Assembly: GCA_039817185.1 (NCBI GenBank)
Contig: JBCBWI010000008.1
Location: 33,335-81,334 of the forward strand
Source of the DNA: Cyanobacteria bacterium J06648_16
GTDB lineage: Bacteria > Cyanobacteriota > Cyanobacteriia > Phormidesmidales > Phormidesmidaceae
Direction of reading: 5' to 3'
DNA length: 48,000 nucleotides
This document shows, piece by piece, positions 1-23,954 of this stretch. Numbering within the stretch: the first letter of the stretch is position 1; each line of letters starts with the position of its first letter. Under the pieces are notes generated by a model that did no database searches, was not told the origin of the DNA, and saw only the letters and a program-made list of their open reading frames with translations. Position numbers and translations under genes: made by a program.

Positions 1-2
1 CC

Positions 3-197
3 GAGCCCGCTTCAAATCAAGAGACCGTCCGCCATATGCTGTTTGGCAGCCCCGACGCCGTCCGGCTTAGCATTCGAGACCTGCACCGCAGGCAGTACGC
101 TGAACCCAACGACTGGAGCAGGTTGCTACCCACCGGCAGACCTAACGAAGTCATGGCCATTTTGACCCGGCGGGTGAAGTTGTCAGCAACGCAATAG
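3..197 (+). CDS. C-terminal end of a hypothetical protein (5' end lies outside the window)
   Basis: Frame +3 is open from the window edge to TAG at 195-197. It reads ...VRHMLFGSPDAVRLSIRDLHRRQYAEPNDWSRLLPTGRPNEVMAILTRRVKLSATQ*, which has protein-like composition. The antisense track ORF 17..292 looks like noise. No family assigned. Confidence 0.4.
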   Translation, partial: EPASNQETVRHMLFGSPDAVRLSIRDLHRRQYAEPNDWSRLLPTGRPNEVMAILTRRVKLSATQ

Positions 198-385
198 CCA
201 TTGCCCCCGCTTCGTATCGCAAAAGTTGCGGCTTGTGTTACACAAACGGTACTTGATGCTGCATAAGCCGCACGTCGCTTGGCAAGATCCACCCACGCCC
301 GTCGCCAGATATCCCAAACTCATATGTGACTCAGGGCTGCCTAAACTGACTGCTGACCAGTCTAGACCCCATGAGCGCTATGGCG

Positions 386-415
386 CTAAACAGATTGAAC
401 CTAAACAGATTGAAC
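386..415. repeat. Perfect 15-bp tandem duplication (ctaaacagattgaac x2) covering the sulfotransferase stop codon
   Basis: Direct reading of 386-400 and 401-415. On the minus strand it encodes VQSV* twice. Confidence 0.9.
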
Positions 416-1384
416 AGGAACTCTCGTTTCACTGTAGCCGAGGCAAGCAAGCCTGTCTCCAGCAATCTCTTGACAGAGACTAATCTCTTCGGGGGACAGC
501 GACCGCTTCCAGTCTCCGACAGCGCCTTTACGAATGTACTGCCCGTCACCTTTGCGGCGAATCTTGCTGATATCTGTGGCACGAATGATGTGACTGATTT
601 GAGCATCATTCCAGCTTAAGTGTGCAAAATCAAATAGGCGCTTGAGATTGGCAACCGGCTCGGATTTGAGGCTTTCGTACCGAACGGCGTGAATTCGAGG
701 GGATAGCTCAGGCTGGGCGCGGTAGCGTTCACCCCAGTCAATGCAGCGACGCCACTGGCGAATCGCCCCCGCTGTGCCAATGTTGGCCCAGGACTGGGTA
801 GCGGCTAGGGCATTGTAAGAGGCGCAAACATCTCTGCCATCGCGAATGACCTCAACCACTTTGGCGTCTGGAAAACGCTGCAGAATCCGATCAACGTAGC
901 GAATGTGCAGGGGCGTTTTTTCAAGCAGCGTCAGACCAGGGCAGTTCTGCTGTTGAAAAAAGTGATCTAGCAGCAACTGAATCAGGTCCTCGGCCTGGGC
1001 TGAGGCGGGTTTAGAATTTTTCTGTGCTGCCGCGACCAACGCTCTGAAGTCAGCCGCATCGGCAAGACCGTGTAGCCCGTGACTGTGGGGGTGATTGAGG
1101 ATGTCATAGTCGCGCAGGATCCCTCGCCAGATATCAGCGGGGGTAAACCCCAACAGCAGCGGCTTAGGGCCGTAGCGTCGTAAAATTCCCCTCCAGCTGC
1201 GTCGCCGCTGAGCCAGGGGCTGATCGGGCAGGGTCAAAAAAGGTTCGTAGATGAGCCGGTATGCATGGGTCTCGACCGGAACAGCCACTACTTCTGGATG
1301 GCCTGCGAGCAGCGAGGTTACCCAGGAGGTGCCTGACCGGGGGCAGCCAACCACGAACAGCTTGGGGTAAGGGGCATTACTCAT
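401..1384 (-). CDS. Sulfotransferase family protein (PAPS-dependent)
   Basis: N-terminal 5'-PSB-like loop FVVGCPRSGTSW and a 3'-PB-like motif VIRDGRDVCASY. Its start overlaps the upstream GT gene by 8 nt. Confidence 0.8.
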   Translation of the reverse strand: MSNAPYPKLFVVGCPRSGTSWVTSLLAGHPEVVAVPVETHAYRLIYEPFLTLPDQPLAQRRRSWRGILRRYGPKPLLLGFTPADIWRGILRDYDILNHPHSHGLHGLADAADFRALVAAAQKNSKPASAQAEDLIQLLLDHFFQQQNCPGLTLLEKTPLHIRYVDRILQRFPDAKVVEVIRDGRDVCASYNALAATQSWANIGTAGAIRQWRRCIDWGERYRAQPELSPRIHAVRYESLKSEPVANLKRLFDFAHLSWNDAQISHIIRATDISKIRRKGDGQYIRKGAVGDWKRSLSPEEISLCQEIAGDRLACLGYSETRVPVQSV

Positions 1385-2531
1385 ACTGGCGCACTAGGGT
1401 ATGGGTAGGGGGCAAGGTAGAAACAGCAATCGTTTCTGGACTGAGCAGGGTCGCAAACGCTTGGGCACAGATCGCGAGGGTACGAGTTTGGTATTGTTGG
1501 TGGGCGTTGGTGGCGACAATTTGTAAGGACGTCAGCAGGTCGGGCGTATGGAGATGCAGGGCCGTCAGTTCAGCGGTAGAGAGGTAGTGCCGCCCCGAAA
1601 CCACGCCGTCCTGAGGGCGCAGCGATTGCTGATTGTTGATGGGCAGCAGTCCGTGGGCACAGTAGGCCGCATAGACCGTTGATTTTGCCAGATTGTTCGG
1701 GAATCGGCGGTAGTCAAACAGACCGGCAAAGCTTTCTTCCATCAGCTGGCTTACTTGTTCTGCAGGCAGAAACCCCGTTCTAATCAGCCTGATTTGGAGG
1801 TGAGATGCCACCTCCTCTAGCGTCTCGTCAAGCGGGCGACCGACATCGTAGAGCGTCTGAATGCCAAGCTGGCCGCAGAGGGTTTGCAGCGTTGACAGGT
1901 TATTGCGGTAGGCACGACTGCGATCGCTACTGCCAAACACCACCAGGGCGCGGGTGCGATCGCACAGTGGCTTCCCCCCCGCTGACTCCCCCACCGTCGA
2001 GAAATTGGGCAAGCAGCGGACCGATCCTGTCACCCAGGTCGACAGCGTTTGCTGAAAGGCCGTATTGTTGGTCACCACCGCATCGGCAACCTGGGCCAGG
2101 CGACGCGAAACCTGCCGCTGAATCGGGTTGGGGCAACGAATGCGGCGATAACGGAGCGTTGGCAGCTCGTGAAACATGACCACTACTCGCACCCCGCGCT
2201 GTTTGAACGCCGCGAGCCCAGCCACTAGCCAACCCGGCGCGTCCAGTTTGCCACGCAGATAGGGATAGTTACTGTACTGGAGCAAAACGGTATCGATCGC
2301 CTTGGGAACGCATGCCAGCAAACCGTCAATCGTGTGCTCAGTCAGCCGATGCACTGGAAACCCTGCTACCTGCTGAGTCGTTCGACGACTCGGTCTAAAA
2401 ACCAGAAATTCGGAGGCAATCTGGTGCTGTCGGGAAAGCTGTTGGGCCAGCTGTAGCGCATAGTCACCCACCCCATCCACATCAGGAGACAATCGAGGAA
2501 CAATTTGTAGAACTCTGCAGGGCTTCGTCAT
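1377..2531 (-). CDS. Glycosyltransferase-like protein (GT-B fold, GT4-like N-terminal half)
   Basis: The N-terminus RVLQIVPRLSPDVDGVGDYALQLAQQL resembles a GT4 N-domain, and there are MFHE and VADAVVTNN segments. I did not see a canonical EX7E motif, so the call is tentative. Confidence 0.5.
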   Translation of the reverse strand: MTKPCRVLQIVPRLSPDVDGVGDYALQLAQQLSRQHQIASEFLVFRPSRRTTQQVAGFPVHRLTEHTIDGLLACVPKAIDTVLLQYSNYPYLRGKLDAPGWLVAGLAAFKQRGVRVVVMFHELPTLRYRRIRCPNPIQRQVSRRLAQVADAVVTNNTAFQQTLSTWVTGSVRCLPNFSTVGESAGGKPLCDRTRALVVFGSSDRSRAYRNNLSTLQTLCGQLGIQTLYDVGRPLDETLEEVASHLQIRLIRTGFLPAEQVSQLMEESFAGLFDYRRFPNNLAKSTVYAAYCAHGLLPINNQQSLRPQDGVVSGRHYLSTAELTALHLHTPDLLTSLQIVATNAHQQYQTRTLAICAQAFATLLSPETIAVSTLPPTHTLVRQYE

Positions 2532-2580
2532 GATGGAGAATGCGGTTATTTTTAGAACCGATGAGAACCTAATTGAGCAG

Positions 2581-5076
2581 CTATGGTGAGGCTTGCCTAG
2601 CTAAATGCTGCTGAGCCAAATGCTGCTGAGCCAGATGCTGCCGCACCCGCTCGGCTAGCAGCGGTCCAGACCGCTGATTGAACAGATTGCCAAAGAATCC
2701 AGGGATATTGATAATCTCGATCGGGTCTTTGGCAACAACCTGCCAGCCCAGAGACGGCCCAAAGTACCAGTCCAACGTCTGTACCCGCGCGCGAAAGAGC
2801 GTCATGCGACCAGCGTAGAGTTGGGGATCGTAGCGATCAGCAGCGGTCTCGTTGGCTGCCTGGGCGCGGGCATAGCGATATTCGTAGGGAATGGCCCCGG
2901 TCGGGTCAGGTACCGTGTCAGAAGAGACAGATTCAGACTGCGCTGCAGCAGACTGCACAGTGACGGCCGCAGGCCGAATGCGCCGCCAGATTTTAGTCGG
3001 TAGCTGTGCCAGCCGCTCCCAGCCGCCATGGTAGTAGTAGTTTTTGCGCAGCCAAAAGTAGGCCTGCTGGAGCTGAAGCTGCCGCTGTACCAAAGGTTGG
3101 TTCGCTAAAGACGCGGGCCGATACGCATCAATCAGAACAATCTCCGCAATCTCTTCGCCCGCTGCCTGCAGCTGTTGGGCAATTTCAACGGCAACCGCAC
3201 CGCCAAAACAGTGTCCGCCTACCAGATAGGGACCTGCGGGCTGCACCATCCGCATTTCTTTGATGCAGTCTGTTGCCAGGGCTTCGACCGTGTGATGGAC
3301 GACGTCGCTACCGTCTAGATCGGGCCGCTGCAGGGCATAAAAGGGCTGTTCGGGGCCGAGCAGGTGAGCAAACCGCGCCCAGGTAAGCGCGTCAGCAGAT
3401 CCCCCGTGAAAGAACAGAGGTGGTTGGCTGCCGCTGGTTTGAATCGGGACGAGACTGGTCCACTGAAGCGATGTTTGCCGCTGGCTGAGCAGGGCTGCAA
3501 ACTGACGAACGTTCGGGGCTTGAAAGAGCGTCGCCAGGGGCAGCGCACAGTCAAGCTGCTGCTGCATTTGATTAAATAGCTGAACGGCCAGGAGCGAGTT
3601 ACCCCCCAGGTCAAAGAAACTGGCCTCAACGCTGAGGGGACGCACCTCTAGAACCGTCTCCCATATCTGAGCTAGCTTGAGCTCTAGTGGATTGGCCGGT
3701 GCGACAAAGGTCTCCTCCAGGGTTGCTCGACTGAGGTCACGGGCGTAGGCAGGATTATCTGGCGCAGTTGCGGCAAGCGTTATATCTAGAGTGGGTAGCC
3801 CGCTCCCGAGCGGTTGAGTAGGCGCCTCGACCAGCGATATCAGCAGAGACTGAAACTGTTGCAGCACTGATTTGAGCGTCGCTGAGTCAAACCCATTGCC
3901 TTCGATTTGTAGCGTGATCGCCGCACCTGGTTTAACTATCAGGGTTAGCCCGTAGGTGCTGACCACGCCCGACTGAATGTTGTTTACCTGCAAGCTGCCA
4001 TTTGCGTTTGCCTCGCGGATGGGGTAGTTCTCAATCACTAGCAGACTATCGAACAGCTGCCCTGAAATACTGCACCAGTCTTGAATCTGCGCCAGCGATG
4101 CGTAGGCGTATTGACTGGCAGTGGCCTGCTGGGCTTGTAACGTCTGCAGCCAGCTCAGCCCATTCTGTTCTAAAGCAACCTGCACTCGTACAGGTAGGAC
4201 GCTGATCAACAGGCCGACGATAGATTCAACCCCAGGTAGGTCTGCCTGCCGCCCCGAGACCGTAGTGCCAAAGAGAATATCGGTTTGACCCGTGAGCTGG
4301 TGCAGTAACAGTGACCAGACACCTTGCATCAGCGTGCTGAACGTGATTCGGTGCGATCGCAATAATGCCGTCACCTGCTCACCCAATGCGCTGTCTAATG
4401 TCAGAGAAGCTTTCGCCTGCGGTTTCTTTGTGTCCTGGCGTAGACTGCCGTCTAGCAGACGCCCTGCCTCGGTCCCCCCCGCCAGGGTCTGCTGCCAGAA
4501 CGCCTCCGCTGCGTCCTTATCCTGCTGCTTCAGCCATTGGATGTACGCTTGATACGGGGTAACCCGTTTGACCTCCAAAGCCTGCCCCTGCTGCAGCTGG
4601 GCGTAGGTGTCGAACACCTGATTGAGGACCAGCGCGCCAGACCAGCCGTCGAGCATCAGATGGTGGCAGGTCCAGACCAGTTCGTACTGGCTATCGGTCA
4701 GGCGAATGAGGGCTAGCCGCATGATGGGTGCTTGAGTGAGGGTGAGGGTGCGATCGCAATCGGCGCTCAAGAAATCTTCTAAAACCCGTTGGGGATGATC
4801 CCGACCGTCCACCTCAGCCCAGGGGAGCGTCACCTGCCGAGCAACCACCTGCAGCGGCTGCTTGACGCCCTCCCAGTGAACCGAAGTTCTGAGCGCAGGG
4901 TGCTGACCGACGACCCACTCCCAAGCCTGTCGCAGCTGTTGAACATTGACTAAGCCCTGCAGGGTGCAGCGCACATGCAAGAGACCTGCCTGAGCAGAGG
5001 TCTGCAGGCTATGCCAGAGAAACGCCTGCTGCAGCGGTGCTAGGGGATAGATCGCTTCGATATTCTGTTTGTCCAT
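2581..5076 (-). CDS. NRPS terminal module C-T-TE with no A domain
   Basis: C domain: IYPLAPLQQAFLWH and HHLMLDGWS. T domain: FFDLGGNSLLAVQL. TE domain: PPLFFHGGSA and YLVGGHCFGGAVAVE. No A-domain core motifs lie between C and T. The start overlaps the upstream stop (TAATG at 5074-5078). Confidence 0.9.
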   Translation of the reverse strand: MDKQNIEAIYPLAPLQQAFLWHSLQTSAQAGLLHVRCTLQGLVNVQQLRQAWEWVVGQHPALRTSVHWEGVKQPLQVVARQVTLPWAEVDGRDHPQRVLEDFLSADCDRTLTLTQAPIMRLALIRLTDSQYELVWTCHHLMLDGWSGALVLNQVFDTYAQLQQGQALEVKRVTPYQAYIQWLKQQDKDAAEAFWQQTLAGGTEAGRLLDGSLRQDTKKPQAKASLTLDSALGEQVTALLRSHRITFSTLMQGVWSLLLHQLTGQTDILFGTTVSGRQADLPGVESIVGLLISVLPVRVQVALEQNGLSWLQTLQAQQATASQYAYASLAQIQDWCSISGQLFDSLLVIENYPIREANANGSLQVNNIQSGVVSTYGLTLIVKPGAAITLQIEGNGFDSATLKSVLQQFQSLLISLVEAPTQPLGSGLPTLDITLAATAPDNPAYARDLSRATLEETFVAPANPLELKLAQIWETVLEVRPLSVEASFFDLGGNSLLAVQLFNQMQQQLDCALPLATLFQAPNVRQFAALLSQRQTSLQWTSLVPIQTSGSQPPLFFHGGSADALTWARFAHLLGPEQPFYALQRPDLDGSDVVHHTVEALATDCIKEMRMVQPAGPYLVGGHCFGGAVAVEIAQQLQAAGEEIAEIVLIDAYRPASLANQPLVQRQLQLQQAYFWLRKNYYYHGGWERLAQLPTKIWRRIRPAAVTVQSAAAQSESVSSDTVPDPTGAIPYEYRYARAQAANETAADRYDPQLYAGRMTLFRARVQTLDWYFGPSLGWQVVAKDPIEIINIPGFFGNLFNQRSGPLLAERVRQHLAQQHLAQQHLARQASP
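2584..3444 (-). other. Thioesterase domain with Cys at the nucleophile position (GHCFGG; TGT codon at 3208-3210)
   Basis: The minus strand at 3201-3230 translates to YLVGGHCFGG. The expected C-terminal GxH motif reads IPGFFGNLF, with no His. Confidence 0.75.
2603..2647. repeat. 15-bp tandem repeat (aaatgctgctgagcc x2 plus one degenerate copy) encoding HLAQQ x3 at the NRPS3 C-terminus
   Basis: Direct reading. The protein tail reads QHLAQQHLAQQHLARQASP*. Confidence 0.85.
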
Positions 5077-7028
5077 TACAGCACCTCCTGCATCAGCTGG
5101 CCGATAAAGCTGTCTAGCTCGGACTGGTCGAGGTCAGCATCGGGAAAGTCTGAGGGCGTAAAGCCGCCGCTGTTGTTCGTGCAGTCGGCGATCAGCGTCT
5201 TGAGATTGCGAATATAGCAATGGGCCAGATCGCCAATGGTCTCAGACCGATAGGCCCCCGTATCGTAGGCCCAGTTCACCTGGAGCTGACTGTCTGCCAC
5301 CCAAGCATTGATTTCGAGCGGGTAGCCCCTTGCATTCTGTGGATGTCGCAGGCAGCCCAGGTGAATATCTTCCCTAACGGATAGGTTACGAGTTGCCCCC
5401 TGCTGTCCCAGGTAGTTAAACAAAATCTCAGGAGACGACTGTGCCAGCTGAGCCCGAGTCGCTTCATCGCCGAGATAGCGCAGCAGGCCATAACCAATGC
5501 CTCGCTTGGGAATTTGGCGGAGCTGTTCTTTGACTGACTTGAGCGCTGCGGTCGAATTTATTTCTGAAAGCGTCAGTCTGACGGGATAGGTGGTCGTGAA
5601 CCAGCCAATCGTACGAGAGAGATCGCTTTGGGGAACAATGTGCTCTCTTCCATGCGCTTCGACTTCAACCCGGACGCTGCCTGTAGCCTCGCCCGCTGAC
5701 TGCAGCAGCGTTTGGACAAGGGCGGTCAGCAGGGCGTCGTTGATTTGGGTATTGTAGGCCGCAGGCACAGACTGGAGCAGCGCCTGGGTATCGGCACTGT
5801 CCAACGCTACGGTTAGGGTGCAGGTAGCAGCCTCGGTTGTGGACGCCGATTCGAAATCTCTGGATAAGGAGATCCCCGGCTCTTCAACCTGAGAACGCCA
5901 GAAGGCGATTTCTTCGGTCGGCAGATGATGCGGCAGGGCCTCCGCCCAGGTCTTGAAGGCGGTTGTCTTAGCGGGCAGGCCGTCAGCTGTGGTCAGCACA
6001 CGAGTCAAATCTTCTAATAGAATCTGCCAGGAGATTGCATCGATGACCCAGTGATGCAGGCCCAAGAGTAGCCAGTTCGGCTCGTGGGAGCCCCGCTGAA
6101 AATACGCGACCTGCATTAGACCAGCCGGGTCGGTACTGCGATAGAGCGGGTTGCCCTGTTGAGAGACTGCTTGGATTTGTTCGGCTTGACTCTGTCCTGC
6201 AATATCAAAAACCTCAAGGGCGGGCGGCTGGGCGCTGTCCTGGTTGTGCTGCTGCCAGCCGGTTTCGGTTGGATAAAAAGACAGCCTGAGGGCATCGTGG
6301 TGGGACCAGAGGGTTGCGATCGCACGCTCTATCGCTTCTAAATCGACCCCCTCGGGTAGCTCAATCAGTCTGGCCTGATGCCAGTGATAGGGGTCCGCCA
6401 TCCCCTGCTGCAGAAACCAGTGCTGAATCGGCGTCAGCGGGACCACACCGGTAACCTCGTCCTGGCTGATGACGGCTTCAGGTGACAGATTTGCCGCCGC
6501 TGCCAGTTCGGCAATAGTGGGTCGCTCAAACAGCTGGTTGGGTGCTAGCCTCAGACCTGCTTCCCTTGCCTGAGACACGATCTGAATGCTGAGAATCGAA
6601 TCGCCCCCAAGTTCGAAAAAGTTGTCGTGAATACCGACCGAATCGAGGCCCAGCACGCTACTCCAAATCTGAGCCAGGCTTGCTTCGGCAGGCGTGCGGG
6701 GTGTAGCTGATACGCTGGGAGGCGTTAGCTGAGGCGCAGGCAGCGCCTGGACATCGACTTTGCCGTTGGCATTACGGGGCATAGCCTCTAGCGGCACGAT
6801 AGCTGCTGGCACCATATAGTTGGGCAGTTTGGCAGCCAGTGCATGTCTCAAGTCGTTGGGCTGAGGCGCGTTTTCTTTTAGAACAACGTACGCCACCAGT
6901 TTTTGAGGCAGCTGGCTCGACGAGGGGGGCGCTACCCCAAGCTGACGCGCCAGGGCCTCTCGCTGGCGCGGCGAGAGCGACCTTACTCGTTGATATAGTG
7001 CCTGATTGGGGGCCATTGCAGAATTCAT
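5076..7028 (-). CDS. NRPS fragment: A-domain C-terminal piece (A9-A10), T and E domains
   Basis: The protein begins with an Arg-rich leader. It then reads KLVAYVV...LPNYMVPAAIVPLEAMPRNANGKVD (A9/A10) and FFELGGDSILSIQI (T). The E domain shows PLTPIQHWFLQ, HHWVIDAISW, EAHGRE and FNYLGQ. No A1-A8 motifs are present. Confidence 0.9.
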   Translation of the reverse strand: MNSAMAPNQALYQRVRSLSPRQREALARQLGVAPPSSSQLPQKLVAYVVLKENAPQPNDLRHALAAKLPNYMVPAAIVPLEAMPRNANGKVDVQALPAPQLTPPSVSATPRTPAEASLAQIWSSVLGLDSVGIHDNFFELGGDSILSIQIVSQAREAGLRLAPNQLFERPTIAELAAAANLSPEAVISQDEVTGVVPLTPIQHWFLQQGMADPYHWHQARLIELPEGVDLEAIERAIATLWSHHDALRLSFYPTETGWQQHNQDSAQPPALEVFDIAGQSQAEQIQAVSQQGNPLYRSTDPAGLMQVAYFQRGSHEPNWLLLGLHHWVIDAISWQILLEDLTRVLTTADGLPAKTTAFKTWAEALPHHLPTEEIAFWRSQVEEPGISLSRDFESASTTEAATCTLTVALDSADTQALLQSVPAAYNTQINDALLTALVQTLLQSAGEATGSVRVEVEAHGREHIVPQSDLSRTIGWFTTTYPVRLTLSEINSTAALKSVKEQLRQIPKRGIGYGLLRYLGDEATRAQLAQSSPEILFNYLGQQGATRNLSVREDIHLGCLRHPQNARGYPLEINAWVADSQLQVNWAYDTGAYRSETIGDLAHCYIRNLKTLIADCTNNSGGFTPSDFPDADLDQSELDSFIGQLMQEVL

Positions 7029-7057
7029 GGGTCAAGTACTCGGGGAAGCCACAGCTG

Positions 7058-8446
7058 TTACGGGATAGATTGTGCGTGTCTGGGAGGAGACCCGTTTTTC
7101 GCAGGGGACCGTTTCTGCTTTGCCAGCAGGGCTTCAACAATCTGAGCGGCTCGCTGTTCGTGGCGATAGCGACGGGTGCGATCGCACATCTGCTCAACGC
7201 AGTTTCGATAGGACGGCTCAGTCAGCAGGGTTCGAATAGAATCACGAATCTGACCAGCCGTGTCCTGCTCTCGATCACCAACAAGGCCCAGTCCGTGGTA
7301 GGCCACGCGAGCCGCGTTCCCGTTCTGGTCGGCATGACCCAGCGAATAAACCAGCATGGGCACGCCCGAGTCGATGCACTCGTTGATGGTGTTAATTCCG
7401 GCGTTAACAACAGCGCAGTCTGCCTGCTTTAGCACCTCAAGCTGAGGCACCCAGCCAAAGGCGTAGACAGTGGGGGGGAGCGTGCCCAGCTGTTCTCGAT
7501 CGAGCTGGTTGCCAAGCCCAACAACCAGGTCCCATTCTGGGCAGTCGGCGACAGCCGCTATCACTTTGCTCAACCACTGCCGATGCCCTTTTGCAAAAGT
7601 GCTACAGCTGCAGTAAATTAGCGTTCGCCCACGAGAACGTCGGTTTTCAAAGCGCTGTTCTAAAATCTTCCAGGTGTCAGGCGTAACGCGCGAATTTTGA
7701 CGGGCCTCGCTCACCATTGGGCCAGCGTAGTGCATCAGGGGATGGGGCTCATGGGGGAAATCGAGCTCTGAGGCGTTAAAGCAGAGGACGGGCAGCTGAC
7801 CTTGACCGAAAGGAATCAGCCACTGGGTAAAGCCAGACTGTTCTGAAAATGGGTAGCCAATCTGCCGGGCATAGCAGCCCCAAATCGATCTTCTGTCGAG
7901 CCCTACCCTCACCCATCGCTGTTGCTGGACTGCTTTCCAGGTCGTAAATCCGTTGCGTAGCCAGCTCAATTCAGCCCTTAACCAGCGGCCCCACCGATCT
8001 TTTGCGGGCATGATAGGGCTACTGATGGCGGGCAAACAGGGCCGTTTCCAAATGGACAGAAACTGGCAAAGCAGCACCATTGGGAGCCCGCTCATCACGC
8101 CTGCCATGATGTGGGGCGTCATTTCCATGTCAATTAGAACCAGATCGGGTTCGAGATTTTGAAGCGTTTGAGTAAAAGACTGAACCCCTAGCTCATCGAC
8201 GGCCCGCTGCTGGCGTGCCTGCAGCGTCAACAGCTTTTGCCATCGGCTCATCGGCGGATCGGCGGGTTGAACCAGCCATCGGTCGAGCTGCACGTAGTCG
8301 ATGCCCTGTGCGGTCACCGCTTGGCGAAAGTCGTGAGGGCTCGCATAGGTAACCCGGTGGCCCGCCTGCGTTAACTGCTGAACAAGTGCCAGACTGGCAT
8401 GGAAGATACCAGTCAGTCCCCCGGTAATACAGACAATATGTGCCAT
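7058..8446 (-). CDS. GT1-family (MGT/UDP-glycosyltransferase-like) glycosyltransferase
   Basis: The C-terminal nucleotide-sugar signature is GWVPQLEVLKQADCAVVNAGINTINECIDSGVPMLVYSLGHADQNGNAARV. The N-terminus is IVCITGGLTGIFHASLALVQQLTQAGHRV. The start lies 2 nt after the MT stop. Confidence 0.8.
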   Translation of the reverse strand: MAHIVCITGGLTGIFHASLALVQQLTQAGHRVTYASPHDFRQAVTAQGIDYVQLDRWLVQPADPPMSRWQKLLTLQARQQRAVDELGVQSFTQTLQNLEPDLVLIDMEMTPHIMAGVMSGLPMVLLCQFLSIWKRPCLPAISSPIMPAKDRWGRWLRAELSWLRNGFTTWKAVQQQRWVRVGLDRRSIWGCYARQIGYPFSEQSGFTQWLIPFGQGQLPVLCFNASELDFPHEPHPLMHYAGPMVSEARQNSRVTPDTWKILEQRFENRRSRGRTLIYCSCSTFAKGHRQWLSKVIAAVADCPEWDLVVGLGNQLDREQLGTLPPTVYAFGWVPQLEVLKQADCAVVNAGINTINECIDSGVPMLVYSLGHADQNGNAARVAYHGLGLVGDREQDTAGQIRDSIRTLLTEPSYRNCVEQMCDRTRRYRHEQRAAQIVEALLAKQKRSPAKNGSPPRHAQSIP

Positions 8447-8448
8447 GA

Positions 8449-9171
8449 CTAAGCTCCCCCCCGGTCAGACTTTCGAGCCAGGACGCAAAGATCCTCGACC
8501 GGCATGTTGTGGGTAAACGGAACGGAGGCGAGCGGATCGAGCAGGTCCAGCCGCCGGATGTGGCTGAACTCGTTGACTCTCTCAAGCTGATACTTCAAAC
8601 CCTCATAGTCGTAGCTCCACTTGTGGATCTGCCCAGGCTCGTCGACCGGGGCATAGCCGAACTGATGGGCGTGGAACGAGAAGAGAAAGCTGGCAGGCGC
8701 GTCCTTGGGAATTCGACGCTGGGCGTATTTCACGAAATAGTCCATGTGGCGATAGTTCGTGAAATATCCGTTGATGTGGGCTCGCAGGTCTGGAACCGTG
8801 ATTAACAGATAGCCGTTAGGTCTCAAGATGCTGGCACAAAATTTCAGCAGGTCCACGCCTTCTTCAAAGCTGAAGTGTTCGAAAACGTGCTGCATCCTAA
8901 TCAGGTCAAAGTCGCCTAACCGCTTCCGGTCAGACTCTCCTAACTGATAGATGTTGGCCTCGTAATATCGCTTGGCCAGCTCAGGAGACAGATCTTTGCT
9001 AGAGCCCAGATCGAGACAGATAAAGCCCGCTTCAAACCGTCGACTGCCCAGGTCTAACCAGCGAGTTTGGCCTGCATCAAGGAGCTGCTGTCTCAAGCGT
9101 CCACCCTGATAGAGCCCCAATTTCTTGAGCCCTCTAACGGCGGTGTGTTTTAACCAGGCTGTATTAGTCAT
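8449..9171 (-). CDS. Class I SAM-dependent methyltransferase
   Basis: Motifs WLDLGS (motif I-like), FDLIRMQHVFEHF and LRPNGYLLITVPD (Methyltransf_11/23-like). The glycine-rich loop is degenerate, so confidence is moderate. Confidence 0.6.
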   Translation of the reverse strand: MTNTAWLKHTAVRGLKKLGLYQGGRLRQQLLDAGQTRWLDLGSRRFEAGFICLDLGSSKDLSPELAKRYYEANIYQLGESDRKRLGDFDLIRMQHVFEHFSFEEGVDLLKFCASILRPNGYLLITVPDLRAHINGYFTNYRHMDYFVKYAQRRIPKDAPASFLFSFHAHQFGYAPVDEPGQIHKWSYDYEGLKYQLERVNEFSHIRRLDLLDPLASVPFTHNMPVEDLCVLARKSDRGGA

Positions 9172-9228
9172 TCGCTTCTTTGAGGGGCTTTTGAAATATC
9201 TGTTCGATACGGGTAATCGGGGTCAGTG

Positions 9229-11994
9229 CTACGGCTCACTTTCGACAGCTGCCAACAGTACTTCAGCTTTATCAGGCTCCAAGGCAGAAAGGGCTGCCAC
9301 CAAATCCTCAACGTCATCACGGCGCTGGGTTGCCACTACTACCGCCTCCCGTACGGTGTCGTGAGCCTGTAGCGCTGCTTCAATCTCTCCTAGCTCAATC
9401 CGATAGCCTCGGATTTTCACCTGCCGGTCGCATCGCCCGAGCCATTCCAGCAAACCATTAGCGCGGCGACGGGCCAGGTCGCCGGTTCTGTAGAGGCGAA
9501 TCCCCGACGGCAGGAGAGAAGACTGATCGGATGTAATAAACGCTGCAGCGGTCCGTTCGGGCTGGTTAAGATAGCCCTGCGCGACCCCGTCACCGCCGAT
9601 GTAGACCTCGCCAACAGCCCCAGTTGGAACCGGCATTAGCTGCTCATCCAACAGATAAATCTGAGTGTTGGGAATGGGATGACCAATGGCAACCGGTCCC
9701 GGCCCTGGCTCCACCGGAAAGCGGTAGACCGTACACCAAACGGTCGCTTCGGTCGGTCCGTATTCGTTGTACAAAGTTGCACTGGGTAGCTTGGCGTAGT
9801 GCTCGGTGGTGAGGGTTTGCGGGCAGGCTTCACCGGCAACAATGACCGTTTGCAGCGTTGCTAGCTGTTGCGGTGTCGCAGCATCCAACAACAGCGAGTA
9901 GAGCGTGGGGACACATAAAGTATGGGTAATTTGCTGGTCGGCGACCAGATGGGCCAGCTGCTGCAGGTCTTGTTCGATTCGCTGGGGCGGTAGCACTAAC
10001 GTTCCCCCCTGGCAGAGCGTCCAAAAGATACCTGCCACCGAGCTATCAAAGGCAATGGACGAGAGCAGCAGGAAGCGGCCCACCGGTTCTGGGTAGAGGT
10101 GCGATCGCACCGCCGTAGAATGCATCAAATTCCGATGGCTGACCATCACGCCTTTGGGACGTCCCGTCGACCCAGAGGTGTAAATGATGTAGGCCAGATC
10201 GTCGGGCTGAGGTGGGCGAGCCGGGGCGGCAGGCATTTCCGGTGCGCTGATAGAGGGCTGAATTGCCCCATCCTTGTCCAGATAGATAGTCGAAATCTCT
10301 CCGTGGGGCCGATCGAGTTTCGATTGGGTTAGCAGCAGCCGGGGCTGAGTGTCCTGCAAGCAGTACGCCAGCCGATCCGCCGGGTACGCCGGGTCCAAGG
10401 GCACGTAGGTTCCCCCAGCCTTCAGCACCGCTAGAATGCTGACGATTCTCTCCAGGGATGGATTCAGGCACAGAGCAACCCGCTCACCGGGGGCAACGTC
10501 GTGCGATCTCAACACCTCAGCCAGCCAATCGGCCCGCTGATTAAGTTCATCGTAGGTCAGCGTTTGGCCTTCAAACACGACCGCCTGCGCCGTTGGCGTG
10601 CGCTCAACCTGAGCTTCAATTAGCTGGTGAATGGTCTGGTCGTGAGGGTAGTCAATCGTCTCCCAATGAGCGAGCTGCTGCTGTTCAGCGGGCGTCAGAC
10701 AGGGTAGCTGGCCCAGCTTGGCCTGGGGCTGTTCAACAAAGGCATTGAGCAACAGTGCCAAGTGATCCTGTAGGTTGGCAATGGCCCCTGCTTCAAATCG
10801 TCCCGAATCGAATAGCATTAGCAGCGTCAGCGATTCGCCGGGAACAACCAGTAGTGCCAGGGGATAGTTGCTCTGCTCTAGATACTGCACCTGGTGAGTT
10901 TCAAAGCCAAGGTCGGCGGCGGCGGGCGTTGGATAGTTTTCGAAGACAACGATGCTTTCAAATAGAGGACTGCCCTTGGGCAGATCGCTCCAGCGCTGGA
11001 TATCGCTCAGGGCAGTGGACTCATACTGTCGTAAGTCAAGCAGCTGCTGTTGCCGGGCCTGTAACCAGTCGATCAACGGCTGCTCAGGCTCGACCCGCAC
11101 CCGCAGCGGCAGCGTGTTGATAAACAGCCCCACCATCGACTCAACGCCGCTCAGTTCAGTTGGGCGACCCGATATAACCGAACCATAGGTGACCTGAGCC
11201 TCACGACTGTAATGGTTGAGCAAGATGGCCCACGCGCCCTGAATGAGCGTATTCAACGTTAAATGATGCTGTTGGGCAAAGTTTTTAAGCGCTTTTGTCA
11301 GTGCTGGGGAGAGCACCTGACTCCGCTGCTGATAGTGCTGGGCGGGCCCGGTACGGGCAGCTGGTAAAGGTGTTGGTTCGGTAAAACCCTCAAGCTGACT
11401 GCGCCAAAAAGACTCTGCTACCGTCAGATCTTGCTCTTGCTGCCAGGCAATGTAGTCTCGGTAAGGGCGAACCGGAGCCAGTCGGGGAACCGTCTCTTGC
11501 TGCAGCGCGCCGTAGTAGGTCAGCATGTCTTGCCAAATCAGCGGCAGCGACCAGCCGTCAAACAGCAGGTGGTGAGAACTCCAAACGAGCTGGTAGGTGT
11601 TGCTGTTTAGATGCATTAGCGTCAGGCGTAGTAGGGGAGCCTGGTCTAGGGCAAATCCCTGGTTGCGATCGCACTTTAAAAATCCCGCCAGCGCCGTCGC
11701 TTGCTCACGCTCGTCCATGCCTCGCCAGTCCAGCTCTCGCCAGGGCAGCGTCACCTGCTGGCGCACCACCTGCAGCGGCTCATCTAGCCCGTCCCACAGA
11801 AATGCCGTACGCAGCACCGGATGTCGCACCAGCGTCTGCTGCCACGCCTGCTGTAATAGCGCTGGCTGAAGAGTTCCCGTCAGCCTACAGGTGTACTGGT
11901 TGATGTAAACACCTGTCTGGGTGTCGGCCAGGGTATGAAACAGCATTCCTAGCTGCGTCGGCGAAAGCGGATAGATATCAGCGACGTTTTCCAT
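9229..11994 (-). CDS. NRPS fragment: C domain plus A-domain motifs A1-A8 only
   Basis: C domain: IYPLSPTQLGMLFH and HHLLFDGWS. A motifs: LTYDEL, LKAGGTYVPLDP, YIIYTSGSTGRPKG, FDSS, NEYGPTEATV, GEVYIGGDGVAQGY, YRTGDL and GRCDRQVKIRGYRIELGEIE. The ORF ends 40 aa after A8 with an acidic tail. A9/A10 and a T domain are absent. Confidence 0.9.
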   Translation of the reverse strand: MENVADIYPLSPTQLGMLFHTLADTQTGVYINQYTCRLTGTLQPALLQQAWQQTLVRHPVLRTAFLWDGLDEPLQVVRQQVTLPWRELDWRGMDEREQATALAGFLKCDRNQGFALDQAPLLRLTLMHLNSNTYQLVWSSHHLLFDGWSLPLIWQDMLTYYGALQQETVPRLAPVRPYRDYIAWQQEQDLTVAESFWRSQLEGFTEPTPLPAARTGPAQHYQQRSQVLSPALTKALKNFAQQHHLTLNTLIQGAWAILLNHYSREAQVTYGSVISGRPTELSGVESMVGLFINTLPLRVRVEPEQPLIDWLQARQQQLLDLRQYESTALSDIQRWSDLPKGSPLFESIVVFENYPTPAAADLGFETHQVQYLEQSNYPLALLVVPGESLTLLMLFDSGRFEAGAIANLQDHLALLLNAFVEQPQAKLGQLPCLTPAEQQQLAHWETIDYPHDQTIHQLIEAQVERTPTAQAVVFEGQTLTYDELNQRADWLAEVLRSHDVAPGERVALCLNPSLERIVSILAVLKAGGTYVPLDPAYPADRLAYCLQDTQPRLLLTQSKLDRPHGEISTIYLDKDGAIQPSISAPEMPAAPARPPQPDDLAYIIYTSGSTGRPKGVMVSHRNLMHSTAVRSHLYPEPVGRFLLLSSIAFDSSVAGIFWTLCQGGTLVLPPQRIEQDLQQLAHLVADQQITHTLCVPTLYSLLLDAATPQQLATLQTVIVAGEACPQTLTTEHYAKLPSATLYNEYGPTEATVWCTVYRFPVEPGPGPVAIGHPIPNTQIYLLDEQLMPVPTGAVGEVYIGGDGVAQGYLNQPERTAAAFITSDQSSLLPSGIRLYRTGDLARRRANGLLEWLGRCDRQVKIRGYRIELGEIEAALQAHDTVREAVVVATQRRDDVEDLVAALSALEPDKAEVLLAAVESEP

Positions 11995-14900
11995 TACCTT
12001 TGGCCTCCAGGACGATCCGCTTTGTTGAGCAGGGCCGAGAGCCTGTCGAGCTTTTTGCTGTTGAGCTTAGCCAGGGGAAAATCGGTTGCCGTGACCTGCC
12101 TACTTGGGGCCATTAGCAGCGTTCGCAGATGCTGCATGACGCCGTCGGCTAACGCCTGCACGGTATCGGCCTCTAGACCGCTGTAGCGCCAGTCAATGTG
12201 GAGCTGTCCCCGGCTAATATAAGCGCTGATTTCGAGGGGGTGCGATCTCACCTGCTTGGGACTGCGAGAAACCTGCAGCGGCTGCGCAAACTGGAAGATT
12301 GAGGCAGGTGGCAACAGCTGCTCCAGCGTGCCGAGATAGTTGAACAAAATTTCAGGCTGGGTTGGCTCAACGCCGATTTCGCTGAGGTAGCGCAAAATGC
12401 CATATCCGATGCCCTTTCGCGGTACCTGTCTGAGGGCTGTTTTAACGAACTGCAGGGTTTCATCCGCACTCGCCACCGTCTGAAACCTCACCGGAAAGAG
12501 TGACGTAAACCAGCCCACCGTCCGCGTGAGACGGCTGTTGGGGACCATCGCCTCTTCTCGCCCATGACCTTCTAGCGCGACCTGTACCCTTTCCTGCCCG
12601 GTCTGCTGCCGCATGGCCAGCGCCAGGGCCGCCAACAACATTTCTTGAGGGCGGGCAAGAGCCGCCTGCAGAAACGCCTGGGTTAGCTTATCGCTTAGCT
12701 GTCGAGAAATCGTGCGGGCTTCGGCCTCAGTCTGAGCGCTTCCGCCTAGCTGCCTCAAAGGAAGGGATTGGCCCTGCCAATAGCTAACTTCTGCCTGGGG
12801 TAACGTCACTTCTGTTAGACCATTAGCCCATGACTTGTAAGAGCTGGTTTTGAGCGGGAAATCCGGTGTCTTTCCCCGGTTTAGCTGCTGATAGGCCGTT
12901 TCTAAATCTTGAATGAGTGTCAGCCAAGAGAGGGCATCCACTGCAAGGTGATGAATCACCAGTCCCAGTTGCTGCCGGTCACCCCAGTCGAACAACACGG
13001 CTCTCACCAGATCGCCTCTGGTCAGGTCAAGCTGGGCCTGCAGTTGAGCAATCGCGTCAGAGACGGTTTGTTGGGGATTGGGCTGGGCGGTCAAGTCCAG
13101 CTTCATCACAGATACCGAGTCAACCCTTTCGCCGTAGCGCTGCTTCCAGCCCGTGGAAGTCTGGGTATAGCGGAGACGCAGGCTGTCGTGGTGGTTGACC
13201 ACTGCCGTCAGCGCAGACCGCAAAACTGGCAGCTGAAGTGTTTCTGCGACATCTAGCAGCACCGTCTGCGTAAACTGCTCCGGTTCGGGTGACGGTTGTT
13301 CAAAAAAGGCACGCTGGATCGGCGTCAGCGGCACCGGACCCGTCAGATCTTCTGGCGCTGTCTCTACTTCGGGCGCAACCACGGCGGACAGCTGGGCCAA
13401 GGTGGGGTGCTGAAAAATCTGGTTAGGTGAAAGCGCAAACCCCGATTCCGACAGGCGAGCCGCAATCTGAATAGCCATAATCGAGTCGCCGCCCAGCTCG
13501 TAAAAGTTATCGTGAACGCCGATGCGGTCTAGCTTGAGTACCTGTTGCCAGGTCTTTGCCAGCGTTTTCTCAACTGCCGTTTGAGGCTCCACAAAGGCTG
13601 ACTGCAGCTCTGGGCGCGTCGCTTGAGGGTCTGGCAGGGCCGCAAAATCGACCTTGCCGTTGGCCGTTAGCGGCATCTGTTCAAGCGGGATGAGGTAAGC
13701 AGGCACCAGATTGCCAGGTAATTGTTGGGCTAAAAATGTTCTCAAATCCGTAGGAGAAACCGCTCCCACATAGTAGGCAGCCAGCTGCGCTTTGTTGATC
13801 TGAGCGTCTTCGTAGCCAATCTCCTGTAGAATTCTCTCGACCTCAGCAACGTCGATCTCGTCGTTGAGTTCATCGATCGCAGCCTCGACAGTCTTATGGC
13901 CCATGCGCACGTCCCAGCTGTAGGGCAGAGCGTAGTTGTGATAGCCCCGCTGTTGGGTATGCAGGTGAATGCCCACGTTGTTGATCAGGCAGTTGGTCGA
14001 GCGTCCCGTATCTGACGGTCGAATCCAGGGAACCTGATCCTGCAAGAAGGCCAGCATTTCTGCCAGCTCAACATCGCAGTAGCGGTAAAAGTCAACAATT
14101 TCGACCGCCTCAAAAATATCGTCAGTTTGAAATACCGCAACGTCCATCAGCTGAGAGACCGCATCGTCAGTTCGGTGATAGGCCTTACGGGCCTCTAGGA
14201 TGGTTTGGTCGATCTGCTCGACGTCGAAACGCTCCTGACCAAATAGCTCAGTAAACCACTCTTCCGTCAGTCGGGTTTCAAAGAATTGCCCTCTAGAAAG
14301 CCCCGTCACAATGCAGGGAATGCCTTTCTCGTAGGCCAGTTGCATACTCAGGGTGTAGATGGTCTTGAAACAGCCGTTGCAAACGTTGCAGTGGCGGTTC
14401 AGACTATCGACAAATATCTCGTTCATGGCTGGCGTGGTGCCAAACTGGTGGTCTACGCCCAACGTCCTGACCACACGACGGATATTGTCTTTGGCCTGGT
14501 CTGAGATGTAGCCATTGTCTAGGGTGAAGGCAAATACGCGATAGCCCATTGTGACCAGCTGAGCCAGGGCATAGGTACTGTCCTTGCCGCCGCTGAGCAG
14601 CATCATACAGTCGTATTCGCCCTGCCGACGCTGGCGAGCCGCCGCCAGACGAACCTTGAGCACGTCCATCGACTTGAAGTACTGCTGGGTGCGATCGCAA
14701 TAGGTCTCGTAGGTCTGGCAAATATCGCAGACGCCCGCTTGATCGAAAGTAATGCCCGGATAGTTAGAGGCGATACCGCAGCGAGTGCAGTAGGTTACCG
14801 GCCCGGTCTGGGCAGGTGCCGTTGTCAGAACCAGGCTAACTGCGCTAGCGCTAACGCCGGGATGGGCCACCAGCGCGGCCTCAATCTCGCCTAGCTCGAT

Positions 14901-17471: not shown

Positions 17472-17475
17472 TCAG

Positions 17476-17715
17476 TTACAGGCTCCTATTGGCGAGGTAC
17501 GCATCAATGGCCTTGATGGTCCGAAAATGGGTAATGGTGATATCTGACTGGGGAATCTCGCATTCGAACCGGTCTTCGACAAAGGCCACCAGCTGCATAA
17601 CGCCCATCGAGTCGATGATCTCTTCTCCGAGCAGATCGTCATCGGCTTCGACCTGCTGACGCCCGCTGAGAAGCGTTTTGCTGATGTACTGTTTGAGAAT
17701 GTCTTGGGTATCCAT
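17476..17715 (-). CDS. Stand-alone acyl/peptidyl carrier protein
   Basis: 79 aa starting at the ATG at 17713-17715 (MDTQDILKQY...). It carries the phosphopantetheine-attachment motif EIIDSMGVMQLV. It lies 25 nt after the adenylating-enzyme stop and 4 nt before NRPS1. Confidence 0.8.
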   Translation of the reverse strand: MDTQDILKQYISKTLLSGRQQVEADDDLLGEEIIDSMGVMQLVAFVEDRFECEIPQSDITITHFRTIKAIDAYLANRSL

Positions 17716-17740
17716 GAGCGCAAGAGAGTAAAGACGTTGA

Positions 17741-19348
17741 TTAGCTGGCTTGCAGGCTGGGTTGTTGACGGTTGGCTTCGGCCTGCTGCTGCAGAGTACG
17801 GCGGTCAATTTTGCCAGTGCCGGTCCGTGGAAAGGTGGGTGCGATCGCAACCCCTTTCGGGACTGCATAGGCAGGCAGCTTTTCGGCCACAAAGCGCAGG
17901 AGATCGTTTTCGGTTAACCCGGCACCAGCCTTAAGGATGACGGCGGCCTCCACCTGACGGCTGCCGGTATCAGTAGGGACGGCGTAAACAGCGGCTTCCT
18001 CAACCTGAGGATGGCTAACTAGAGCTGCTTCGACCTCGTCTAGCTCAATGCGGTAGCCTCGGGTTTTGATCTGGCGGTCTTTGCGGCCAATGAACTGGTA
18101 GTTGCCGTCAGTCAGCTGCTGCACTAAATCTCCGGTGCGATAAAACACGGCTGCTTGGCTGGCGATTTTCGTTCGGTAAAATACCTGCTCGTTCAGCACT
18201 GGCTGCTGCCAGTAGCCCGCCATCATGGTCGGTGTCCGTACCAGCAGTTCACCCACTTCGCCCGAAGGCACTAGCTGGCCGTCGTCATCGACCACCATTT
18301 CTTCGGCGTTAGCCCAAATCCGGCCAATGGGCGCGACCGCCTCCGGTACGGGCTGCCCCTCGGTCAGCGGCGGCACGTGGTAATAGCTGCACTGGTTGAT
18401 CTCGGCTGGACCGTAAACGTTGCTAAACCGGGCCTGTGGCAGTTGCGCCATCAGGTCGTACATATATTTAGCCGGGTAGGGCTCGCCCCCAAACAGCACC
18501 CACCGAAGTGAGCGTAGGTCTCTTTCGTGAAGGGCCCCGCGCAGCAGTAGCTGAATCAGGGCAAAGGGGACCGAGTACCAAATCGTCAGGGCCTCATCCT
18601 GCGCCAGCTGGGAAAGACTGGCCGGAATTTTTGTGTAGGCCTCGGGAATAATCACGGTTGTTGCCCCCACCAGCGGCCCCGAAAAATAGTCCAGCGTAGA
18701 CATATCGAAGTGGAGCGGTGAGTGATTGCCGAGCCGATCGGTATGGGTCAGGCCGTAGGTATGCGCCGCCATTTGGGCGTAGTTCAACCCGCTGCGGTGG
18801 GTGTGCATGATGCCCTTGGGCGTGCCCGTCGAGCCCGAGGTGTACATAACGTAGGCCAGGTCCTGCTCCATCAGTGAAACGGCGGGCGGCGTCTCGCTAG
18901 GAACAACCTCGGACCAGTCACAGCGCTCGATAGAAGACACCAGCTCGAAACTTTTTGGCAGCCCCAAAATAAACGCCAAGCCGGGAGCCGCGTTGAGCAA
19001 ATCAGGCATCCGGGTGCGCTTAGCTTTTTGGGTGATCAGGTGGCGGATACCACAGTGGTTGATGGCGTAGGCCGTACGGGAAATGGGGGCGCTCGGGTCC
19101 AGAGGGACGTAGGCGGCACCCGCTTTCCAGATGCCGTAAAGTGCGATCGCACTTTCGAACCCTTTATTCAAATAAATGCCGACTCGGTCACCCCGACGCA
19201 CGCCGTGATTGACCAGCATCAGAGCCAGCCCGTTGGCCCGCAGCAGCAGTTGTTCATAGGTAAGCCCCTCTCCCTCAAATCGAAACGCCTCCCGCTGGGG
19301 AAACCGTTCGGCAGAGCAGTCAAGAATCTGGGATAGCAGATACATCAT
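17741..19348 (-). CDS. Stand-alone adenylating enzyme (AMP-dependent synthetase / A-domain protein)
   Basis: Motifs YVMYTSGSTGTPKG, NVYGPAE, YRTGDLV, GRKDRQIKTRGYRIELDEVE and GKIDRR. The start is chosen at the ATGATG at 19343-19348, which is preceded by AGGAG overlapping the ACAD stop. Confidence 0.85.
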   Translation of the reverse strand: MMYLLSQILDCSAERFPQREAFRFEGEGLTYEQLLLRANGLALMLVNHGVRRGDRVGIYLNKGFESAIALYGIWKAGAAYVPLDPSAPISRTAYAINHCGIRHLITQKAKRTRMPDLLNAAPGLAFILGLPKSFELVSSIERCDWSEVVPSETPPAVSLMEQDLAYVMYTSGSTGTPKGIMHTHRSGLNYAQMAAHTYGLTHTDRLGNHSPLHFDMSTLDYFSGPLVGATTVIIPEAYTKIPASLSQLAQDEALTIWYSVPFALIQLLLRGALHERDLRSLRWVLFGGEPYPAKYMYDLMAQLPQARFSNVYGPAEINQCSYYHVPPLTEGQPVPEAVAPIGRIWANAEEMVVDDDGQLVPSGEVGELLVRTPTMMAGYWQQPVLNEQVFYRTKIASQAAVFYRTGDLVQQLTDGNYQFIGRKDRQIKTRGYRIELDEVEAALVSHPQVEEAAVYAVPTDTGSRQVEAAVILKAGAGLTENDLLRFVAEKLPAYAVPKGVAIAPTFPRTGTGKIDRRTLQQQAEANRQQPSLQAS

Positions 19349-19358
19349 CGTTTGGCTC

Positions 19359-20507: not shown

Positions 20508-20573
20508 GAGAAACTAAGGAAGAAGGGGCAAGACGGAGAGCCAGCGAACCGATGACAAACCAACGGCGTGTTC

Positions 20574-21653: not shown

Positions 21654-21818
21654 CGTCGAAAGGCGATTGTTAGTGGGGGCAGAGAGCGAGGCGATCATGT
21701 AGAAAAGGGCTAATAAATGAAGTAAACACTGGCGTAAGGCGATCAGCCTGTGGGTATCGGCAGACTCCACCGGGCGGTCACCGTCAAAAAGGGATAAACG
21801 GTTTCACTCGCCCTTCGG

Positions 21819-23948: not shown

Positions 23949-23954
23949 TATAGG

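Follow-up and report, generated by a model that had tools for sequence, protein, structure and literature searches.

The stretch of DNA considered here comprises 48,000 nucleotides (nt) of Cyanobacteria bacterium J06648_16 (assembly GCA_039817185.1, contig JBCBWI010000008.1, positions 33,335 to 81,334 of the forward strand) and is called the window throughout. A tightly packed row of minus-strand nonribosomal peptide synthetase (NRPS) genes spans window 2581-19381, and the adenylation (A) domain of one of its modules is divided between two polypeptides: a 921-amino-acid (aa) protein made of a condensation (C) domain and the A-domain core motifs A1 to A8, and a 650-aa protein that contributes motifs A9 and A10, followed by a carrier (T) and an epimerisation (E) domain. 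The genes of a methyltransferase (MT) and a glycosyltransferase (GT) lie in the gap between the two halves (Table 1).

Table 1. Features of the NRPS gene row, ordered by window position. TE, thioesterase; ORF, open reading frame; AF2, AlphaFold2.
Feature	Window position	Strand	Basis and remarks
Sulfotransferase, cluster end	401-1384	-	
GT4-like gene, cluster end	1377-2531	-	
Terminal C-T-TE protein, 831 aa, without A domain	2581-5076	-	Pfam
Downstream half of split module, A9-A10-T-E, 650 aa	5076-7028	-	ORF
E domain, HHWVID motif (HHxxxD)	5076..6449	-	Pfam Condensation 194-619; stop codon 5076-5078
T domain, GGDSI motif typical of T preceding E	6495..6677	-	Pfam PP-binding 118-178
A domain part 2: strand QKLVAYVVL, A9, A10; residues 42-100 of 650-aa protein	6729..6905	-	Pfam AMP-binding_C 42-90
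Head of 650-aa protein: two conserved helices PNQALYQRVR / PRQREALARQL and variable spacer; putative N-terminal docking element	6906..7028	-	Consensus and AF2
GT1 glycosyltransferase (GT), 462 aa	7058-8446	-	EryCIII-like_C and UDPGT
Methyltransferase (MT), 240 aa	8449-9171	-	Methyltransf_23
Upstream half of split module, C-A(A1-A8), 921 aa	9229-11994	-	ORF
Tail of 921-aa protein: two conserved amphipathic helices DVEDLVAALS / PDKAEVLLAAV; putative C-terminal docking element	9232..9318	-	Conserved motif and AF2
A domain part 1: core and first third of C-terminal subdomain (A1-A8, helix, strand VREAVVVATQ); residues 455-892 of 921-aa protein	9319..10632	-	
C domain of split module, residues 1-445 of 921-aa protein, HHLLFDG intact	10660..11994	-	Pfam Condensation 5-441, E 6.8e-97
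C-A-T-E protein (module 1), 1825 aa, PP-loop insert inside A domain	11994-17471	-	
Carrier protein, 79 aa, ..EEIIDSMGVMQLV..; adjoins stand-alone A domain	inside ORF 17476-17892	-	
Stand-alone A domain	17741-19381	-	TIGR01733 362 bits, above cut-off; AMP-binding_C present
Acyl-CoA-dehydrogenase-like gene, upstream of stand-alone A domain	19359-20507	-	
Ornithine cyclodeaminase, upstream of stand-alone A domain	20574-21770	-	

The core motifs of the divided A domain are all intact and are shared out between the two proteins. The 921-aa protein carries A3 (YTSGSTGRPKG), A4 (FDSS), A5 (NEYGPTE), A7 (YRTGD) and A8 (GRCDRQVKIRGYRIELGEIE), and the 650-aa protein carries KLVAYVV, A9 (LPNYMVP) and A10 (NGKVD) with the catalytic lysine. 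In the upstream half, Pfam AMP-binding matches residues 460-809 and TIGR01733 residues 480-886, the latter over 409 of its 409 profile positions; Pfam detects no AMP-binding_C in this protein, which can be aligned with the A domains of LgrA as far as the strand following A8. The AMP-binding_C match of the 650-aa protein takes in profile positions 27-76 of 76 only, i.e. the last two thirds. The E domain of the same protein scores 140 bits with NCBIfam TIGR01720 (cut-off 74). A by-eye reading of the Stachelhaus code gave DSALIAEVWK, from which no substrate assignment was reached.

The break lies between ..EAVVVATQRR and QKLVAYVV.., i.e. between A8 and A9. In unsplit relatives these strands are joined by a tight turn (..EAVVVAREDxPGDKRLVAYVV..), with an A8-to-A9 spacing of 63-66 aa. 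Because the unsplit relatives join both strands by a short turn, the cut falls in a beta-hairpin inside the C-terminal subdomain rather than at the hinge that connects this subdomain to the core. The chain is not continuous across the gap, the MT, the GT and the downstream half each having a start of their own; in the downstream half, where about 40 aa precede KLVAYVV, the true start may be the second methionine (7016), as suggested by orthologue alignment. A preliminary description of this stretch, made from its letters, had given the coordinates of the four ORFs (921, 240, 462 and 650 aa) correctly and had located the division of this second A domain at the A8/A9 hairpin, which is borne out by the motifs, by Pfam and by the spacing in unsplit relatives. 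It had the upstream protein stop 40 aa after A8; the early stop stands, and the count is corrected to 49 residues past A8 (..RGYRIELGEIE), with the stop codon at 9229-9231 and no MT domain.

The intergenic distances across the split locus are 57, 2 and 29 nt, the 2 nt separating the MT stop from the GT start, and in Leptolyngbya sp. PCC 7375 the stop of the GT gene overlaps the start of the gene that follows. Promoter-like and terminator-like sites in window 4800-12300 showed no excess over shuffled expectation. All four genes (C-A, MT, GT and A9-A10-T-E) are probably on a single transcript.

Conservation of the split and of its end helices

The sequence was compared with an independent Logan assembly (SRR22824277, L001), which covers window 1-11628 with seven mismatches. 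None of these falls in 5076-11628, and a continuous ORF on resequencing, one of the refuting outcomes named in the preliminary description, is excluded. In a database search, the 650-aa protein was covered to 97-100% by proteins of about 640-700 aa that fall into more than 50 clusters at 90% identity, with orthologues from Leptothoe, Adonisia, Leptolyngbya sp. PCC 7375, Leptolyngbya Heron Island J, Dapis, Crocosphaera, Xenococcaceae and Nostoc. The identical split was seen in the gene contexts of LEGE 11480, PCC 7375 and a Crocosphaera metagenome-assembled genome (MAG). A locus scan with the GT as query, restricted to one genome per species, returned 30 loci, about 27 of which are cyanobacterial and show C-A(A1-A8), gap genes and A9-A10-T-E wherever the contig covers them; the proposed search of other cyanobacterial genomes for the same split is answered by these species. 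Large scaffolds also carry it, namely those of PCC 7375 (8.2-Mb) and Adonisia turfae CCMR0081 (7.7-Mb). In eight close pairs, ratios of nonsynonymous to synonymous substitution rates (dN/dS) were 0.10-0.22 for the A core, 0.10-0.35 for the tail of the upstream protein, 0.11-0.60 for the head of the downstream protein and 0.06-0.31 for A9-A10; as judged from these ratios, both halves are under purifying selection.

Because the second assembly agrees, about 27 species keep the split and dN/dS lies at 0.06-0.6, the layout is neither an assembly artefact nor a product of decay. A sequencing or assembly error in a really continuous ORF, or a dead and decaying cluster, could be suspected from the unusual layout itself and from nothing further. 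Against this stand the identity of the second assembly across the split, the recurrence of the split in species that include PCC 7375 and A. turfae CCMR0081, a gap made of two complete conserved genes (2.2 kb) and the low dN/dS values, and the suspicion, already refuted by the comparative data, is close to impossible. Decay of the cluster and a recent insertion lethal to the pathway, both named in the preliminary description as outcomes that would overturn its reading, are excluded by the same species and ratios. Non-covalent reassembly, which it had considered necessary for the module to work, fits the conservation of both halves and the selection that appears to act on them.

Both cut ends bear conserved helical elements of amphipathic pattern, which the preliminary description missed. 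At the upstream end, the strand ..EAVVVA is followed by a variable spacer and by a tail motif with the consensus VExLVxALxxLxxExAExLLxxxE, shared by 27 loci and by split A proteins from other phyla. At the downstream end, a head motif (MxxxxxLxQRVxxLSPxQRxxLAQQL) is followed by a spacer of about 5 to 65 residues and by (Q/K)RLVAYVV; it starts 16 of the 16 short matches (640-700 aa) whose N-termini were read, about 20-45 residues ahead of LVAYVV. Neither element occurs in the unsplit relatives. An artificial fusion that joins residues 455-921 of the 921-aa protein to residues 1-190 of the 650-aa protein was modelled with AF2, from an input alignment that consisted of the window fusion and unpaired database rows and so held no co-evolution signal between the halves. 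The model (pLDDT 88.6, pTM 0.83) places four helices between the two strands, assigned by DSSP to residues 440-449 and 453-463 (tail) and 474-483 and 487-497 (head) in fusion numbering, with pLDDT over 10-residue blocks of 77-91 in the tail and 81-87 in the head. Globally, the model is most similar to holo-EntF in the thioester-forming state (TMq 0.79). A search aimed at a contiguous ancestor with a four-helix insert, in which a query joining A8-tail to head-A10 was run against a representative library of 1.84 billion proteins, returned mostly giant multi-module NRPSs, and the few full-length stretches were low-complexity linkers.

The same elements extend to sister clusters and to other phyla. 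In Nostoc (L008), a C-A-tail-MT protein is directly followed by head-A9-A10-T-E, with tail and head motifs as in the window cluster; its MT is of the PF27704 type, a guanidinoacetate N-methyltransferase-like family. An MT of this type is a free 263-aa gene within the gap at a second locus (L040), and at a third (L039) it stands beside the downstream half, with the C-A gene on the opposite strand; the head motif is present at all three. Verrucomicrobiae/Akkermansiaceae encode 775-aa A-tail-MT proteins without AMP-binding_C (P0263, P0289, P0296), whose MT is again of the PF27704 type, and A-only proteins of about 500-540 aa, also without AMP-binding_C, include one labelled Tectomicrobia (P0254) and others (P0266, P0329). 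In all of these, the window-type tail motif either forms the C-terminus or is followed by further sequence, and the A4 motif FDSSxAGIFW is common to all split A proteins compared. Since sister clusters and phyla differ in how the MT is arranged, the tailoring enzyme at the cut site can be either fused or free-standing, and one type can be exchanged for another.

Genes in the gap and around the split module

The two genes in the gap encode a class I S-adenosylmethionine (SAM)-dependent methyltransferase and a GT1 glycosyltransferase, as the preliminary description had it and as Pfam and structure matches in the PDB and Foldseek support. The MT reaches 28.6 bits with Pfam Methyltransf_23 (cut-off 27), and its motif I is reduced to WLDxG, in which only the first glycine of GxGxG is kept. 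Its AF2 model (pLDDT 85.8) has the Rossmann-like class I SAM-MT fold, with Foldseek probability 1.0 to SAM-dependent methyltransferases at TM about 0.45-0.5, none of them close. Among the matches listed, the MT homologues are all free-standing proteins of 179-286 aa, some of them in non-NRPS contexts (e.g. one that is 66% identical). The GT matches PF06722 (EryCIII-like_C; 45.6 bits, cut-off 31.7) and PF00201 (UDPGT; 35.9 bits, cut-off 19.5), and stays under the cut-off of NCBIfam MGT (137 bits, cut-off 260); its nearest solved structures are OleD/OleI, Kcn28, CalG2 and YjiC, with OleD, Kcn28 and CalG2 at E 1e-25 to 1e-20 in the PDB.

The content of the gap was classified over the window and 22 loci with both halves. 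The GT stands alone in nine loci, and is accompanied by a Methyltransf_23 MT in eight (the window and seven others), by a Stf0-type sulfotransferase in three, by the MT and a Sulfotransfer_1/3 enzyme in three, and by the MT and an extra 569-aa ORF of unknown kind in one. Since the MT travels with the GT and sulfotransferases and is missing from many orthologous gaps, it more likely decorates a sugar than modifies an amino acid. Together, the three enzyme types would point to a methylated or sulfated glycoside on the product. Some relatives have a sulfotransferase within the A-domain gap in place of the one that lies at the cluster end in the window.

Next to the split module, the A domain of module 1 is interrupted by a PP-loop domain of about 350 aa (window 13767-14819, minus strand) with an N-terminal CxxC..CxxC element. 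This insert lies between strands equivalent to those at the cut of the split module, so that the earlier placement of break and insert at the same hairpin is upheld. It gives a full-length match to NCBIfam TIGR03573 (WbuX, N-acetyl sugar amidotransferase) at E 5.6e-32, under the cut-off, and weaker matches to QueC, LarE and TtuA; text searches of the literature yielded no account of a PP-loop-type A-domain insert. The same PP-loop-interrupted C-A-T is found in Bacteroidota MAGs, adjoining GT11, GT1 and Wza/Wzc/Wzy-like genes (L035). Loci L035 and L036, both from Bacteroidota, were considered as unsplit versions of the split module and were rejected, as Pfam identifies them as homologues of module 1 with its PP-loop-interrupted A domain.

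Further along the row, genes 17476-21770 resemble a starter cassette that converts proline to a pyrrole-2-carboxyl-S-carrier (PltF/PltL/PltE type) with an added proline supply gene. The terminal module has no A domain in every orthologous locus whose contig reaches that far; its C-T-TE is fused to the preceding E domain in some loci and is present in two copies in LEGE 11480. Outside the gene row, the G+C content drops to 0.42-0.49 in window 22001-24000, compared with about 0.57 elsewhere, and 23036-23955 contains no ORF of at least 150 aa and no Rfam match. The sole Rfam match of the whole window is a tRNA (33188-33260, minus strand).

Proposed reassembly and its alternatives

It is probable, on the basis of sequence conservation, modelling and analogy, that the divided A domain reassembles non-covalently through the tail and head helices and that the gap is a conserved slot for tailoring genes. 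Non-covalent reassembly would be the only reasonable route to a working module, because both halves are conserved under purifying selection. Tail and head would pack as a small helical bundle that acts like a docking-domain pair and places the strand ..EAVVVA.. beside ..KLVAYVV.., whereby the hairpin, the C-terminal subdomain and a complete A domain would be rebuilt. The upstream protein would give the substrate pocket and A1 to A8, and the downstream protein A9, the catalytic lysine of A10 and the carrier domain; the rebuilt subdomain would then rotate, as it does in an ordinary A domain, between the adenylation and the thiolation state. Neither half is expected to adenylate alone, and the upstream protein in particular should be inactive by itself because the A10 lysine and the carrier come from the downstream protein. 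The gap would be the gene-level counterpart of the insert of an interrupted A domain, with the GT1 enzyme constant and the MT and/or sulfotransferase variable. As far as conservation can tell, the split layout is a working design, and adenylation by the paired halves is predicted by analogy.

A more far-reaching proposal is that tail and head form a docking module proper to the whole FDSSxAGIFW clade of A domains cut at the A8-A9 hairpin, whose bundle recruits the GT, MT or sulfotransferase encoded in the gap, free or fused, so that the carrier-bound residue is glycosylated or methylated. Docking of these enzymes on the bundle would be reasonable by analogy, because relatives with a fused MT put the enzyme physically at the junction; nevertheless we regard the proposal as tentative and rather doubtful. 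If true, such a landing platform would amount to a natural plug-in, i.e. a non-covalent interrupted A domain with exchangeable cargo.

Several observations count against reassembly through the helices with a conserved gene slot. The AF2 fusion is one artificial chain that makes the helices neighbours in sequence, and it says little on tail-head contacts. A profile of the head, compared with the PDB, had as its second-best match the CurG/CurH class 2 docking-domain fusion 4MYY (IKQLSPLQRAALALK) at a non-significant E of 0.095, a profile of the tail matched nothing there, and the joined tail and head peptide gave no meaningful match. The GT lies within the gap in every GT-recovered locus whose contig spans it, a constancy biased by retrieval, as most loci were found through the GT. 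Literature searches on the cluster family and its product (PCC 7375, sulfotransferase, glycosyltransferase) found no paper. Finally, a stand-alone A domain is also encoded in the cluster and the terminal module has no A domain, and trans-loading schemes may therefore be possible.

Some trans-loading must occur in the pathway because the terminal C-T-TE module has no A domain, and the cluster has an amino-acid A domain that stands alone and is complete (TIGR01733 362 bits). The split A domain could then be dead or merely structural, with the T domains of the 650-aa protein and of the terminal module both charged in trans by the product of 17741-19381. This is improbable, as A1 to A10 are intact including the A10 lysine, with both halves under apparent purifying selection, as the stand-alone A domain has a 79-aa carrier protein of its own downstream, an arrangement suggestive of a role in the starter unit, and as the split A domain Crz1/Crz2 of the corallorazine pathway is active when both halves are present (PMC11342130). 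A neutral accident of gene order has been weighed as well, in which a tailoring cassette landed in a permissive loop, the subdomain fragments complement each other, the helices are linker remnants and the GT and MT act after release. Large inserts can be accommodated in the A8-A9 loop (PMC8341866, PMC11355689), members of the MT family otherwise stand alone and occur outside NRPS clusters as well, and there is no sign of the GT or MT binding the synthetase. However, the same tail and head motifs recur in different phyla and with different gap contents, their dN/dS is below 1 and they have no counterpart in unsplit relatives, and since this makes a functionless remnant hard to uphold, the accident is a marginally better but still poor candidate. 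Post-translational covalent joining, whether through a split intein or ribosomal bypass, can be practically dismissed: besides a weak chance match between the head profile and an engineered intein peptide (E 0.17) nothing speaks for it, at 29 aa and about 40 aa, respectively, tail and head fall far below the length of intein halves, junction Cys/Ser and HN motifs are lacking, and the halves lie on opposite strands in one relative (L039). A split intein in particular was ruled out by size and motifs.

Comparison with known systems

For a module that would reassemble from two halves, as preferred here, a counterpart has been described in Corallococcus coralloides, where corallorazine biosynthesis involves an A domain split between Crz1 (..C-A-nMT, ending after A8) and Crz2 (A9-A10-T-TD) (PMC11342130). 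The A2 fragment of Crz1 is inactive alone and shows near-quantitative ATP exchange when mixed 1:1 with Crz2, and the 2024 report calls this split, functional A domain unique; the word "docking" is absent from its text, and docking elements are not mentioned (PMC11342130). The split itself thus has a precedent, contrary to the preliminary description, which knew of none. As in Crz1/Crz2, the window cluster has A1-A8 in the upstream protein and A9-A10 with T in the downstream one. Unlike it, the upstream protein ends in a two-helix tail, whereas Crz1 has an N-methyltransferase (N-MT) domain fused after A8 and the Crz genes are adjacent; in the window a free MT and a GT (2.2 kb) lie between the halves, and one to three genes do so in related genomes. 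A Crz-like layout (C-A-tail-MT / head-A9-A10-T-E) exists at the Nostoc locus L008.

Interrupted A domains (A8-M-A9 and related; TioS, KtzH, McyA) hold an auxiliary tailoring function between A8 and A9 (PMC8341866). The window module shares the position of the break and the presence of tailoring functions at that site. Interrupted A domains are, however, single polypeptides with an embedded domain, whereas here the chain is broken and the enzymes are separate, so that the window module falls outside a strict definition of interrupted A domains. A 2020 survey of interrupted A domains makes no mention of splits, and "glycosyltransferase" does not occur in it (PMC8341866). The break had also been equated in the preliminary description with the insertion site of embedded N-MT domains; both lie between A8 and A9, which is as far as the comparison reaches, as the N-MT inserts in the Nostoc proteins inspected lead directly into ..LRxFLxxKLPxYMIP, with no LVAYVV strand in the approximately 110 residues shown ahead of A9. 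The series from embedded domain to fused-and-split enzyme to free gene in the gap could explain how the inserts of interrupted A domains are gained and exchanged.

Docking elements of two helices are reviewed for systems of cyanobacteria and myxobacteria, and docking domains that form four-helix bundles have been described at the intramodular "split module" junctions of trans-acyltransferase polyketide synthases (PMC9113145). With two predicted helices at one C-terminus and two at the following N-terminus, the window pair is similar in layout to class 2 (CurG/CurH-type) or four-helix-bundle docking domains. The head motif V..LSP.QR..LA is similar to the N-terminal docking domain of CurH, which is a lead and not proof of membership. 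Known docking pairs join whole domains (e.g. acyl carrier protein/ketosynthase, ketosynthase/ketoreductase), whereas the window pair would bridge a cut inside a folded subdomain. Literature searches for other split A domains returned the corallorazine paper only, and none on interposed genes, conserved end helices or such breadth of split A domains. The A8/A9 cut is nevertheless widely used: clusters of this type have it in about 27 species of cyanobacteria, and the same tail motif ends proteins of other phyla; genome-mining tools that expect contiguous A domains will mis-annotate such modules as truncated or inactive. In engineered NRPSs, modules have been split and reassembled non-covalently through synthetic zippers, i.e. 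appended helical modules. Those splits are artificial, whereas the window cluster would represent a natural, conserved equivalent inside an A subdomain, and would offer an evolution-tested site and a candidate docking pair for cutting and recombining NRPS modules.

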